Counted from the first letter of the stretch, positions 1,856 through 64,000 are shown. The stretch is 64,000 nucleotides of DNA from an uncultured archaeon (GCA_963799775.1 CAWCYD010000003.1:1120001-1184000); one strand, 5' to 3'. Translations and numbers: made by a program. Notes: generated from the sequence alone by a model not told the origin.

Positions 1856-1911
1856 TTGAGCGGGCCCGGTGGGATTTGAACCCACGACATGCTGGTTAAG
1901 AGCCAGCCGCT

Positions 1912-1928
1912 CCAGGAACCTTAGCTCT
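1912..1928 (-). other. Second tRNA intron near position 22/23 (17 nt; boundaries slide by 1-2 nt)
   Basis: Required to restore CCAGGTCA-GAGC D-loop/stem; GAGC-TAAG-GTTC hairpin; central helix poor. Confidence 0.55.
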
Positions 1929-1937
1929 CTGACCTGG

Positions 1938-1964
1938 TTTCCCGACTCGGTTGAGACGGAGTCT
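1938..1964 (-). other. tRNA intron at position 15/16 (27 nt)
   Basis: GCTC AG|A GACTC..GAGTC GGGA AA|C: two 3-nt bulges, 3/4-paired central helix, 5-bp intron helix. Confidence 0.75.
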
Positions 1965-2073
1965 CTGAGCCACGGGCCCGCGAGCAGGCCGACCAGTGTC
2001 TCGGATATTTACTTTGCACCGCGAGGGTGGACCCGTTATTAGTGGGCAGACGGCGGCCACAGGCGAAACAACC

Positions 2074-44413: not shown

Positions 44414-45871
44414 TCAGCCCTTGATGTTGCCTATCGGACGAAGCGCCGCGACCTTGAGAGAGATGCCCGCCTGGTGCATGGTCTCTACGACCTCGGAGAT
44501 GTCCTTGTAGGCCATCCCTGCTTCCTCTGCCAGCCCGTCCATCGTGGCGGCCTTGACGTAGATCCCGCGCTTCTCCATGCTCCTTTGGAGCTCGACGCCG
44601 CTGACCTGCCTCTTCGCAGCGGTCCTAGACATGGTCCTTCCCGACCCGTGGGCGGTCGAGCCGAAGGTCTCCTCCATCGCCTTCTTCGTCCCCAGGAGGA
44701 GGTACGAGCCGGTCTCCATCGAGCCGCCGATGATCACGGGCTGTCCGAGCTCACGGTAAGCCTGAGGGATGTCGTGGTGCCCGGGCCCGAAGCTCCTTGT
44801 AGCCCCCTTCCTGTGGACGAGGAGCTCTTTGGAGCTGCCGTCGACCTCGTGCCTCTCGACCTTGGCGATGTTGTGGCAGACGTCGTACACTATCTGCATG
44901 TCCATGCTCTCGGGGTCCTTGTGGAAGACCTGCTTGAACGCCTCGCGGATCCTCTGGACTATCACCTGCCTGTTCGCAAACGCCATGTTGGCCGCGCACG
45001 CCATGGCCCCGTAGTAGTCAGCACCCTCTTTCGAAGAGAACGGGGCGCAGGCAAGCTCCCTGTCGCGGACCGTGATCCCGTACTTTTTCATGGCCGTGTC
45101 GAAGACCCTGAGGTAGTCGGTGCCCACCTGGTGCCCAAAGCCCCTGCTCCCGCAGTGCACCATGACGACGACCTGGTCCTCGTGCACCAGGCCGAAGTGC
45201 TTGGCCAGACCGACGTCGAGGAAACGAGCAGGGTCGACCACCTGCACCTCGCAGTAGTGGTTCCCAGACCCCAGGGTGCCGAGCTGGCTTATCCCCCGGC
45301 TGGACGCCTGCTGACTGACCTTCGAGGGGTCGGCACCCTTGATGTATCCTCCCTCCTCGACCTTCTGGACGTCGTCGTCCCATCCGTAGTCGTTCTCGGC
45401 GCACCACTTGACCCCCCACCTCATGACCTCCTCGAACTGCGGCTGGTTGAGCTTCACGAATCCCTTGACGCCCACACCGGTGGGGATGAGCCGGAAGAGG
45501 AGGTCCACGAGCTCCTTTATCCTCGGTTTCACTTCGGCCAGCCGGAGGTTGGTGCGGACGAGCCTCATGCCGCAATTTATGTCAAACCCGATTCCGCCGG
45601 GAGAGATTACTCCCTTCTCGGGGTCAAACGCAGCCACTCCCCCGATCGGGAAGCCGTATCCCCAGTGCGCGTCTGCCATCGCGTAGGAGTACTTCACTAT
45701 CCCCGGGAGGGATGCGACGTTCGTGACCTGCTCTATGACGCCGTTGTCCATCCCCTCGAGGAGGTGCTTCGTGGCGTAGATCCTGGCCGGGACGTTCATC
45801 CCTTCCTTGAAGGAGGTAGGGATTTCCCAGACCACGTCGGAGATTTGCTTGGCAATCTTTGCATCTGTCAA
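44414..45871 (-). CDS. rtcB: RNA-splicing ligase RtcB
   Basis: DAHWGYGFPIG, DINCG, GSGNHY, HRKGAT, HGSGR. Confidence 0.97.
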   Translation of the reverse strand: MTDAKIAKQISDVVWEIPTSFKEGMNVPARIYATKHLLEGMDNGVIEQVTNVASLPGIVKYSYAMADAHWGYGFPIGGVAAFDPEKGVISPGGIGFDINCGMRLVRTNLRLAEVKPRIKELVDLLFRLIPTGVGVKGFVKLNQPQFEEVMRWGVKWCAENDYGWDDDVQKVEEGGYIKGADPSKVSQQASSRGISQLGTLGSGNHYCEVQVVDPARFLDVGLAKHFGLVHEDQVVVMVHCGSRGFGHQVGTDYLRVFDTAMKKYGITVRDRELACAPFSSKEGADYYGAMACAANMAFANRQVIVQRIREAFKQVFHKDPESMDMQIVYDVCHNIAKVERHEVDGSSKELLVHRKGATRSFGPGHHDIPQAYRELGQPVIIGGSMETGSYLLLGTKKAMEETFGSTAHGSGRTMSRTAAKRQVSGVELQRSMEKRGIYVKAATMDGLAEEAGMAYKDISEVVETMHQAGISLKVAALRPIGNIKG

Positions 45872-45928
45872 ATTGGGAGAGCGACTTGTCGGCGGGCGCG
45901 GACTAGTGGACTTAAGCATTCTCCGATG

Positions 45929-46390
45929 TCAGATGTCCAGGACGACCGTCGCTTCCCACCAGCCCGGTCTCGCCTTGTCTCTCTTGACGCCGAACATGTG
46001 CATGGTGACAGCCTTCACGTCGTTCCTCAGGGCGTGCCTGGCGCGATCGATCTCCTCGCCACGGAGGACGCAGGTAAGCCTCTGTCCCTTCTTCTTGGGC
46101 GAGATGGAGACGTGGAAGTCTTTGAAGAGCAGCGAGTCGACGTCCTTGATCACAATCAGCTCTGTGAGGAAGTCGTAGAGGAGCCTCTCGATGTCGGGGG
46201 AAGCGAGCTCGATTCTCCTCTCGAGCCGCCCGACCACCGTCCTCCTGTCGACCATCACCTCTGTCAGAGCCCTGCCCGCCGTCTCGAAGAGGCGTGGGAG
46301 CGAGTCCGCTCTGGCGACGAAGGCGATGTCCGCGAGGGCGATGTTGGAGAGGAACCTGAAGCTGGAATGCCTCGCTGCTCTGCCGACCAA
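45929..46390 (-). CDS. Archease
   Basis: ADIAF, LLYDFLTEL, VKAVTMH, VVLDI; directly upstream of rtcB. Confidence 0.92.
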   Translation of the reverse strand: MVGRAARHSSFRFLSNIALADIAFVARADSLPRLFETAGRALTEVMVDRRTVVGRLERRIELASPDIERLLYDFLTELIVIKDVDSLLFKDFHVSISPKKKGQRLTCVLRGEEIDRARHALRNDVKAVTMHMFGVKRDKARPGWWEATVVLDI

Positions 46391-62467: not shown

Positions 62468-63649
62468 GTGATGGAAAAAGCGGAAGGGAGCGGCCCCGCA
62501 ATACTGCTTCTTGAAGACGGGACCGTCTTCTTCGGGAAGGGGTTCGGCGCCGAGGCGACGGTGGTCGGCGAGCTGGTGTTCAACACGGGGATGGTCGGCT
62601 ATCCGGAATCCATGACCGACCCGTCCTATTCGGGTCAGGTGCTCTCCTTCACGTATCCGTTGATAGGGAACTACGGCGTCCCGAACAGCAAGGAGAAGGA
62701 CGTCTACGGACTGCCAAGGCGCTTCGAGTCGGACGGGATCAAGGTGACAGGGATCGTCGTGCAGGAATACTGCCAGAGACCGAACCACTGGACCTCTGTC
62801 CAGACCCTCTCAAGGTGGATGGCCGACCAGGGAGTTCCGGGGATAGAGGGCGTCGACACGAGGGCGCTGGTCACCACGATAAGGGAGCGGGGCGTGATGA
62901 TGTGCGCGCTTGGGACTGGGCCAGAGATCGCGAGCAAGAGGGAGCTCAAGCGGCTCCTGGAGAAGGCGGCGAGATACGACTCTGTGGACTACGTGAGACG
63001 GGTCTCCGTGAAGAAGCCTGAGAGATTCGGCGTCTCGGAGAAGAGGGTGGTGCTCATCGACTGCGGGGTAAAGGAGAGCATCGTCAGGAACGTGCTCGGC
63101 CGCGGCTACTCCGTGGTCAGGATGCCGTTCGACTCGTCGTATGCCGACGTCATGCAGGATGACCCCGCCGGAGTCGTTGTGTCCAACGGGCCTGGCGACC
63201 CGCGCCTGTGCGTCGAGACCGTGAAGACGACCTCGAGGCTCGTCGACTCGGAGGTCCCTGTGCTGGGGATCTGCCTTGGCGAGCAAATACTGGGGATGTC
63301 CCAGGGGGCCGAGACTTACAAGCTGAAGTACGGTCATCGCGGTCAGAACAAGCCGGTCGTAGACGTCATCACTCGGAGGGGCTTCGTTACGAGCCAGAAC
63401 CACGGTTACGCCGTCGACCCCAGGACGCTCGCAAAGACAGAGCTCACGCCGTGGTTCATCAACGCCGACGACCATAGCGTCGAAGGCTTGGTGCACGGGA
63501 CCAAGCCGGCGATAGCCGTCCAGTTCCACCCTGAGGCGACACCGGGGCCTTACGATACCGAGTTCGTGTTCGACAGGTTCGTCGAGTTGATGTCTTCAGG
63601 CAAGAGGAAGAGCGTGGTAGGTGAGAGAGTTCGAAGCATGAGGGCGTGA
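62468..63649 (+). CDS. carA: Carbamoyl-phosphate synthase small subunit
   Basis: LEDG, TDPSY, SNGPGDP, GICLG, QFHPE. Confidence 0.97.
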
Positions 63650-64000
63650 AGAAGGCCCTAGTCCTCGGCAGTGGGGCGATAAAGATCGGAGAAGCAGGCG
63701 AGAGCCGCTAAGCGGCCGCAAATTCGACTACTCCGGTAGCCAATGCCTCAAGGCGCTGAGGGAAGAGGGGATCAGGTCGATACTGGTCAACCCGAACATC
63801 GCGACGATTCAGACGGACTCGAGGATGGCGGACAAGATCCACTTCCTCCCCGTCAATCCTGAGTTCGTCACCGACGTCATAGAGAAGGAGAGGCCCGACG
63901 CGGTCCTCCTCGGCTTCGGGGGACAGACCGCGCTCAACTGCGGGGTCGCACTATCCAGGTCGGGTGCGCTCACGAAGTATGGCGTGAAGGTGCTGGGCAC
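63646..64000 (+). CDS. carB: Carbamoyl-phosphate synthase large subunit, 5' part, interrupted by a 20-nt insertion
   Basis: [15 protein letters not shown] | [16 protein letters not shown]...[10 protein letters not shown]...GFGGQTALN after removing 63703-63722. Confidence 0.93.
63703..63722 (+). other. Putative BHB-type intron in carB mRNA
   Basis: GGCG AG|A GCCGC TAA GCGGC CGCA AA|T; in-frame TAA at 63709-63711. Confidence 0.75.

Follow-up and report, generated by a model that had tools for sequence, protein, structure and literature searches.

A probable bulge-helix-bulge mini-intron in the carbamoyl-phosphate synthase gene carB of an uncultured archaeon and its Nitrososphaerota relatives

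The carB locus and its insert

The window analysed here is a stretch of 64,000 nucleotides (C3:1120001-1184000) from the 2.47-Mb, 3-contig genome of an uncultured soil archaeon (GCA_963799775.1; genome G000), and towards its end lie carA, the gene for the small subunit of carbamoyl-phosphate synthase, and the beginning of carB. The GTG start codon of carB at 63646 overlaps the carA stop codon (GTGA), and after 19 codons, at 63702, the coding sequence is interrupted by 20 nt (63703-63722). We conclude that these 20 nt are very probably an intron of the bulge-helix-bulge (BHB) type in the carB pre-mRNA.

The first exon ends with the codons GGA GAA GCA GGC GAG (GEAGE), and TTC GAC TAC TCC GGT (FDYSG) follows from 63723 in a frame that differs from that of exon 1. 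The insert holds an in-frame TAA, and the unspliced carB frame is an open reading frame (ORF) of 21 amino acids (aa; 63646..63711); excision of the 20 nt restores the GEAGE-FDYSG motif exactly. An earlier note on this DNA had described the 20 extra nucleotides, their TAA and the restored motif, and the sequence is as it stated; intron-less relatives read straight through. Exon 2 matches the Pfam domain CPSase_L_D1 from profile position 21 of 118, so that the missing part is the share of exon 1 only, and the ATP-binding domain CPSase_L_D2 follows. The spliced junction, ...GCAGGCGAG joined to TTCGAC..., is predicted to read GAG and not GAA. The features of the locus are as follows (arrows mark cut positions throughout).

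62468..63649, + strand: carA, carbamoyl-phosphate synthase small subunit, 393 aa, directly upstream of carB; Pfam CPSase_sm_chain (E 3e-50) and GATase (E 2e-46)
63646..63702, + strand: carB exon 1, GTG and 18 codons to GEAGE; in intron-less relatives this N-terminus runs directly into FDYSG
63685..63691, + strand: exon-1 arm AUCGGAG of a putative distal exon-exon helix, partner CUCCGGU at 63731-63737; from the minimum free energy (MFE) fold and frozen synonymous sites
63697..63700, + strand: 5' strand GGCG of the central helix H, within exon 1; pairs with CGCA at 63717-63720 (three Watson-Crick pairs and a G.A)
63701..63703, + strand: 5' bulge AGA, predicted cut 63702/63703; A-R-(A/T) in all aligned inserts, cut rule verified on a relative's RNA
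63703..63722, + strand: 20-nt probable BHB intron, from its fold, homologous inserts, covariation and a covariance-model score of 83.4 bits; it comprises the third base of the 5' bulge, the inner helix h' (63704-63708/63712-63716) with loop UAA (63709-63711), the 3' strand of the central helix (63717-63720) and the first two bases of the 3' bulge
63721..63723, + strand: 3' bulge AAU, predicted cut 63722/63723; A-N-T in class inserts, cut rule verified on a relative's RNA
63723..64000, + strand: carB exon 2, continuing beyond the window to about C3:1186850; Pfam CPSase_L_D1 (profile 21-117) and CPSase_L_D2

The MFE fold of 63685-63740 contains the 5' bulge AGA, the 5-bp hairpin GCCGC-UAA-GCGGC and three pairs of GGCG/CGCA, together with the distal exon-exon helix AUCGGAG/CUCCGGU. 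The window insert thus offers two 3-nt bulges (AGA and AAU) on opposite strands, flanking a 4-bp helix (GGCG/CGCA). A NotI-like palindrome, GCGGCCGC, also lies inside the insert; we set it aside as a by-product of the helix and the central strand, since relatives have other sequences there.

Excision of the homologous insert from a relative's RNA

Excision of the homologous carB intron is shown in G038, a relative from the same order. Its one-contig genome has a 26-nt insert in carB (locus L157, + strand, 768-793). Thirteen RNA-recorded rows contain the L157 stretch or part of it, and four of the runs were examined as contigs:

X1, study P1, single-organism transcriptome: 1900-nt contig, depth 1241, exactly 26 letters missing at 768, otherwise identical
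X3, study P1, single-organism transcriptome: 1147-nt contig, depth 1523, exactly 26 letters missing at 768, otherwise identical
X5, study P2, compost metatranscriptome: 3026-nt contig, depth 30, exactly 26 letters missing at 768, otherwise identical
X6, study P3, RNA-Seq (PolyA) library from a compost sample: 154-nt contig, depth 2.1, insert retained

Apart from the 26-nt gap, no difference was seen in the X1, X3 and X5 contigs over 935-1200 nt. Strain variation is an unlikely source of the gap, since the 26 nt are present in the G038 genome itself and the contigs differ from it in nothing else. The relative's junction, GAG joined to TTT, is the only one that cuts after the second base of each bulge can give, and a shift by a single base would alter it. 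The earlier note had applied this second-base rule to the window to obtain an in-frame junction, and in the RNA of the same-order relative the rule gives the precise junction that is observed.

A conserved insertion site across the order

The closest named relatives of the window genome are metagenome-assembled genomes (MAGs) of Nitrososphaerota (Thaumarchaeota), for example Nitrososphaerales archaeon and Candidatus Gagatemarchaeum stordalenia; more distant named relatives belong to Nitrosotenuis, Nitrososphaera, Nitrosopumilus, Nitrosotalea and Cenarchaeum. We parsed 111 carB loci (2 from the window genome, 29 from relatives and 80 from named records, with some genomes in both sets). In 95 of the 108 readable loci an insert directly follows the Glu codon that ends GEAGE and directly precedes the Phe codon that opens FDYSG; GEAGE and FDYSG are uninterrupted in the other 13, and three further loci are cut by contig ends. 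Across relatives the insert is 17-32 nt long.

A class-wide sample of 201 genomes gave a carB match in 155, and its counts refer to the 150 matches listed, 10 more being unlisted; the N-terminus was unaligned in 45 matches, for 44 of which the upstream region was inspected, the 45th being G000. The insert is present in 89 of the 150 and absent from 61. Those 89 are made up of 44 in-frame inserts (43 of 21 nt and one of 27 nt), 44 out-of-frame inserts of 20-32 nt, and that of G000, and every in-frame insert (44/44) carries one or two stop codons. A phylum-wide sample covered 301 genomes, with 56 weaker matches unlisted. By taxon, the counts are:

Inside the order: 88 with insert, 47 without (among the 150 class matches listed)
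Other orders of the class: 1 with insert (G090), 14 without (among the 150 class matches listed)
Other classes of the phylum: 2 with insert (G367 and G403), 104 without (among 106 matches listed)

We note that the carriers outside the order are L150 (G090:C32), from another order of the class, and L166 (G367:C41) and L167 (G403:C70), from other classes.

In a search of G000 with a covariance model of the carB intron and its exon flanks, carB is the only real site, at 83.4 bits. A second match (C3:953506-953537, E = 1.09) was rejected as chance; it falls inside an intact open frame that looks like a PIN domain. Among 151 genomes, full-length matches (62-70 nt) occur only in G000, 12 genomes of the order and G367, and 27 intron-less genes give 42-nt matches to the exon parts only.

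Anatomy and covariation of the inserts

Parsing inward from both junctions, which requires no alignment, showed one layout common to all inspected inserts (95 from the parsed loci, 44 from the class sample and those of G367 and G403). The exon strand of the central helix is GGCG, rarely GGTG or GCGG, and the intron strand is CGCC, CGCT, CGTC, CACC, CCGC or, as in the window, CGCA. This helix has 3-4 pairs at a fixed distance from both junctions in the 95 and 44 inserts; most relatives have four Watson-Crick pairs (GGCG/CGCC), and the CGCA of the window is one of several variants. The bulges conform to A-R↓N on the 5' side and A-N↓T on the 3' side, and every insert has an inner helix of 3-8 bp closed by a loop of 3-17 nt. 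The inner helix occurs in numerous compensatory variants: GCCGC/GCGGC, GCTGC/GCAGC, GTCTC/GAGAC, GCCAG/CTGGC, GTCAC/GTGAC, GTTAG/CTAAC and GTTATCT/AGATGAC.

Alignment of 95 distinct sequences gives the same picture. Paired cells amount to 94.3%, against 88.0% in column shuffles, and cells changed on both sides number 132, against 41.5; neither value was reached in 500 shuffles. These shuffle counts overstate the signal, the sequences being related; pair-type diversity and controls with slid partners are independent of kinship. When partners are slid by 1-3 columns, pairing falls to 21-53%. Both-side changes are found in six of the nine core pairs (4/5 in the inner helix and 2/4 in the central helix), and individual inner-helix column pairs hold distinct pair types, for example UA in 51 and CG in 35, or GC in 52 and AU in 36. 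The inner helix h' flanking the 5' bulge is thus kept by compensatory change. Three column pairs of the central helix (20:53, 21:52 and 22:51) are paired in 95/95 sequences. The clearest covariation is seen in G367 and G403, where exon Ala GCG replaces Gly GGC and the intron strand is CCGC in place of CGCC. A comparison of relatives' carB for presence, absence and compensatory change had been proposed as a check in the earlier note, and the 95 occupied sites among 108 loci and the six changed core pairs are its outcome.

Constraint on synonymous sites in the exons

The exon arms also appear to be constrained, as seen when 119 distinct intron-bearing contexts are compared with 14 intron-less ones:

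Ile third position: C in 115/119 intron-bearing, varies freely in the 14 intron-less
First Gly third position: A in 118/119 intron-bearing, varies freely in the 14 intron-less
Second Gly third position: C in 117/119 intron-bearing, varies freely in the 14 intron-less
Tyr third position: C in 118/119 intron-bearing, varies freely in the 14 intron-less
Ser third position: C in 105 and T in 13 of 119 intron-bearing, varies freely in the 14 intron-less

The codons ATC, GGA, GGC, TAC and TCC are thus 88-99% invariant in genes with the insert, and the unpaired Ala third position and sites further out vary in both sets. The frozen sites belong either to the central helix or to the distal AUCGGAG/CUCCGGU pairing. 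That distal helix shows almost no covariation among the 95 sequences, and we regard it as a probable constraint at the RNA level and not as a proven helix. Taken together, the conserved position, the shared anatomy, the compensatory changes and the frozen exon sites bear out the proposal that a protein-coding gene here contains a BHB intron.

One intron-less gene, L097, keeps exon nucleotides typical of intron-bearing genes (ATCGGAGAAGCCGGTGAA / TTTGATTACTCTGG), which suggests a recent and precise loss of the intron.

Splicing machinery and a tRNA-Lys intron of the same geometry

G000 encodes two EndA paralogues (187 and 201 aa), located at C3:491.9 kb and C3:1241.7 kb, and both contain the N-terminal as well as the C-terminal Pfam domain. 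One paralogue is closest to the PDB chains 2cv8_A, 3p1z_B, 3ajv_B and 2zyz_B, catalytic subunits of crenarchaeal two-subunit enzymes; the other paralogue is more distant, and its matches include 3iey_B NEQ261. To judge from these similarities the endonuclease is probably heteromeric, of the (alpha-beta)2 type, and its subunit make-up and specificity are predicted accordingly from sequence. The exon ligase would be RtcB, which the earlier note had placed together with archease at 44414-46390, where the corresponding Pfam matches are indeed found. The genome thus appears to encode both a splicing endonuclease suited to relaxed motifs and an RtcB ligase. Relevant features elsewhere in the window are:

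1866..1978, - strand: tRNA-Lys(CUU) gene, interrupted after position 15 by a 27-nt intron; layout H / AG↓A / h' / H' / AA↓N, boundaries from manual reading
44414..45919, - strand: RtcB RNA-splicing ligase, 501 aa, putative exon ligase; Pfam RtcB (E 3e-172), the only RtcB match in the genome
45929..46390, - strand: archease, RtcB cofactor, 153 aa; Pfam Archease (E 3e-34)

The tRNA-Lys gene is called in part by ARAGORN (1860-1935) and by the Rfam model (positions 9-63). Its intron is composed of GCTC, AG↓A, GACTC...GAGTC, GGGA and AA↓C; the likeness to the carB insert that the earlier note had pointed out can be read directly in the window gene. As the geometry matches that of carB, the cell must already process such a shape, and presumably the same enzymes act on both introns. 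Between its D stem and its anticodon stem the tRNA-Lys gene contains some 15 nt more, which may be a second intron.

The following pathway would account for these features. The carA and carB genes would be cotranscribed, and GGCG of exon 1 would pair with CGCA of the intron to form the central helix, with the GCCGC/GCGGC hairpin of the intron as inner helix and the splice sites in the 3-nt bulges AG↓A and AA↓U. The two-paralogue archaeal splicing endonuclease would cut after the second base of each bulge, and RtcB with archease would join GAG to UUC. The product would again read GEAGE-FDYSG, in the full-length CarB frame; from unspliced mRNA only a 21-residue peptide could be made. For the window organism we infer the splicing itself, the roles of EndA as nuclease and RtcB as ligase, and the fate of the intron.

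Gain, loss and other mini-introns

A quick maximum-likelihood tree, unrooted, was built from 810 nt of exon 2 for 96 distinct rows (83 with and 13 without the intron), leaving out loci above L111, L002, identical-DNA rows and unreadable loci. The intron state needs at least nine changes on this tree, six of which are forced by well-supported branches, and intron-less genes are nested within intron-bearing groups of Nitrosotenuis-like, Nitrososphaera and Nitrosopumilus sequences. Since carriers in the order outnumber non-carriers by 88 to 47, precise loss on several occasions would be a simpler reading than gain. G367 and G403, the carriers outside the class, share only 55-56% identity with the intron-less search protein (304-aa query), which makes recent transfer from the order unlikely; the occupied site in these two genomes and in G090 reflects either an ancient origin or repeated insertion.

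Two further protein genes of G000 carry inserts with the geometry of the carB intron. The RNase HII gene has a 29-nt BHB-type insert (C3:406852-406880) that splits GVDEAGR from GCVLGP, with central helix CGGG/CCCG and bulges AG↓A and CG↓A; it occupies 6 of 11 same-genus loci and is missing from the other 5, and its inner helix differs among loci. The eS30 gene has a 19-nt BHB-type insert (C3:410000-410018) between HGSLTKAGK and VRGQTPK, with central helix GGGG/CCCT; of the 18 loci examined, 7 contain it and 7 do not, the other 4 being unreadable, and a compensatory difference (TGCC..GGCA versus TGCG..CGCA) is seen. Both inserts occur only in some species of the genus and show compensatory changes. 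All three introns, including that of carB, lie within the first ~10-20 codons of their genes, a placement that may stem from translation competing with splicing, or else from a bias in what is noticed.

The earlier note had also suggested scanning the genome for other genes broken by BHB-forming inserts. RNase HII and eS30 are such genes. A genome-wide scan of G000 for the BHB geometry, requiring b1 = A-R-N, three or more central pairs and an inner helix of 4 bp or longer, returned 8,700 candidates from both strands together; a reversed-sequence control, scanned on one strand, gave 4,873. Filters for joined open frames left 439 and 154, against 171 and 80 in the one-strand control. With control counts this high, and with 1-nt assembly errors that mimic split genes, the scan is too unspecific for a systematic inventory.

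As a tentative and rather doubtful extension, we suggest that BHB mini-introns in protein genes form a whole set so far overlooked in Nitrososphaerota and neighbouring Thermoproteota, of which that of carB would be the most conserved. Its members would still be coming and going within genera through a mechanism that is active and site-specific, such as reverse splicing with subsequent reverse transcription or recombination. Such a set would explain why the carB site is occupied in three classes, why the RNase HII and eS30 introns occur in about half of one genus's species, and why all three introns fall in the first ~20 codons.

Alternative explanations

Several observations weigh against interpreting the 20 nt as a spliced intron. 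The local fold energy is not significant relative to shuffled sequences (z = -1.64, with 15/200 shuffles as stable), and it was for this reason left out as evidence. The central helix of the window carries a G.A mismatch, so that the motif is relaxed and not canonical. No outer helix h directly closes the 3' bulge AAU in the MFE fold, in which there is a 5-nt loop with exon-exon pairs further out. The AGA bulge, the GCCGC/GCGGC helix and three central pairs of the fold claimed in the earlier note stand, but its 3' bulge has no adjoining helix; the insert fails as a strict hBHBh' motif and is a relaxed, HBh'-like form. Relaxed BHB motifs are described as accepted by two-subunit and epsilon-type endonucleases (PMC5829648). 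The RNA evidence comes from G038 and not from the window organism, and the X6 contig, which retains the insert at the relative's site, represents either unspliced RNA or library DNA. As contigs drop rare variants and RNA libraries can hold DNA, the data show the joined form in two studies and not the spliced fraction. Finally, carB in this assembly switches frame at least three times downstream of the window. The case that the insert is not due to chance comes from the comparison of relatives and from a relative's RNA, and not from the local fold.

The downstream frame switches bear on two alternatives, that carB is a decaying pseudogene in which the insert is one of several inactivating lesions, and that the 20 nt are a sequencing or assembly artefact of a long-read-like assembly. 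For decay, one can point to the three or more further breaks and to the lack of a second carB copy, the two carB matches in G000 being the two ATP-grasp halves of one gene. Two of the switches, located by comparison with a same-genus relative, are 1-nt indels (C3:1184564 and C3:1185340). Around the breaks the differences from that relative nevertheless remain concentrated at third codon positions (95/131, 90/119 and 75/102), same-genus relatives have insert-bearing genes with intact frames of 1034-1035 codons, and the insert is under structural selection. A break of the same kind occurs in the essential gene cbf5, whose match to TIGR00425 falls into two neighbouring parts, shifted by one base against each other (C3:1033569). 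We read these 1-nt breaks in carB and cbf5 as consensus errors, of which the assembly, given the selection-like substitution patterns, probably holds many; its completeness of 81.67% in spite of only three contigs fits such errors. The earlier note had named a carB otherwise decayed as evidence against the intron, and formally its frame is broken, but with the third-position bias kept and the relatives' genes intact we consider a pseudogene very unlikely. The same breaks are what might be cited for an artefact, to which we attach hardly any weight. Independent assemblies of dozens of genomes hold a related insert at the same junction with compensatory differences, and the site scores 83.4 bits with the covariance model. 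All other frame breaks seen are single bases, as the earlier note had observed.

Instead of being spliced out, the gap might be passed over by hopping ribosomes (bypassing), as happens in phage T4 gene 60, which the insert resembles in its short coding gap, its hairpin and a stop codon immediately beyond the take-off site. This likeness is superficial, and we regard bypassing as having a negligible chance of being correct: the insert itself is absent from a relative's RNA-library contigs, the take-off codon GAG and the landing codon TTC are unmatched, and what is conserved is a BHB geometry in which the bulges are fixed at 3 nt. A different proposal accepts the spliced intron and adds a regulatory checkpoint, in which splicing efficiency or competition between ribosome and endonuclease sets the ratio of CarB to CarA. 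It draws on the short distance (57 nt) from the intron back to a start codon that shares bases with the carA stop, on the early placement of all three mRNA introns found in the genome, on the one low-depth intron-retaining contig in a relative and on the very broad retention of the intron. Conservation of structure is expected of any obligatory intron and is silent on regulation, and repeated loss without evident consequence (the changes on the 96-row tree and the 47 intron-less matches in the order) speaks against a checkpoint, which we consider improbable. We favour a BHB intron in carB; that carbamoyl-phosphate synthesis would depend on splicing activity, as the earlier note suggested, is a conjecture.

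Relation to known systems and significance

Watanabe in 2002 and Yoshinari in 2006 are said to have described a BHB intron in cbf5 pre-mRNA. The carB intron resembles that cbf5 intron, found in Desulfurococcales and Sulfolobales, in being short, in having a relaxed BHB and in residing in a protein gene. The cbf5 hosts have a two-subunit endonuclease, as the window organism probably does, and in both systems the presence of the intron is patchy, implying gain and loss (Yokobori 2009, PMC2738675). Unlike cbf5, carB is a metabolic gene, its carriers belong to Nitrososphaerota, and its intron is 17-32 nt long and lies 19 codons from the start. No intron was found in the cbf5 gene of G000, as judged from the TIGR00425 profile match.

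The carB intron is also similar to the non-canonical tRNA introns of Thermoproteales and Thaumarchaeota, including that of the window tRNA-Lys, which likewise consist of a 4-nt exon strand, AG↓A, a hairpin, a 4-nt intron strand and AA↓N. In contrast to these, the carB substrate is an mRNA, its exon arms are constrained by coding, and no tRNA body aids recognition. Animal XBP1 and its counterpart HAC1 contain a short, frame-changing mRNA intron removed independently of the spliceosome, cut by IRE1 and, in animals, ligated by RtcB. They share with carB the use of an endonuclease and an RNA ligase, although the nuclease and the motif (twin stem-loops) differ and regulation is established there. 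The splicing endonuclease of Haloferax volcanii is homodimeric. That organism has a BHB intron in the 5' untranslated region of HVO_1309, which like carB is an mRNA substrate of the splicing endonuclease, demonstrated there in vivo and in vitro; it differs from carB in lying in an untranslated leader and in having a euryarchaeal host (Schwarz 2020, PMC7714728).

Splicing was described in 2009 as confirmed in cbf5 alone among genes (PMC2738675), the cbf5 mRNA was given in 2020 as the one further place where a BHB intron had been reported (PMC7714728), and a reference list from 2025 cites only cbf5 papers for protein genes (PMC12397907). We found no report of a carB intron in open-access full texts, and an earlier mention elsewhere is possible. 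The carB gene is a new host for a known kind of element.

For two decades cbf5 has been essentially the sole basis for the view that the tRNA-splicing machinery also splices archaeal protein mRNAs. The carB gene belongs to central metabolism, serving both arginine and pyrimidine synthesis, and its intron is found across most ammonia-oxidising archaeal lineages and in non-oxidising soil relatives. The carriers are globally abundant and several are cultured, and evidence of excision is already present in public transcriptomes. Gene callers may report carB, RNase HII and eS30 as truncated, frameshifted or pseudogenised, which would distort metabolic reconstructions and presence/absence tables. 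The hundreds of natural variants of the carB intron offer a tractable substrate for the study of relaxed-BHB recognition in mRNA, and with at least nine changes of state on one tree, the gain and precise loss of introns in archaea become directly testable.

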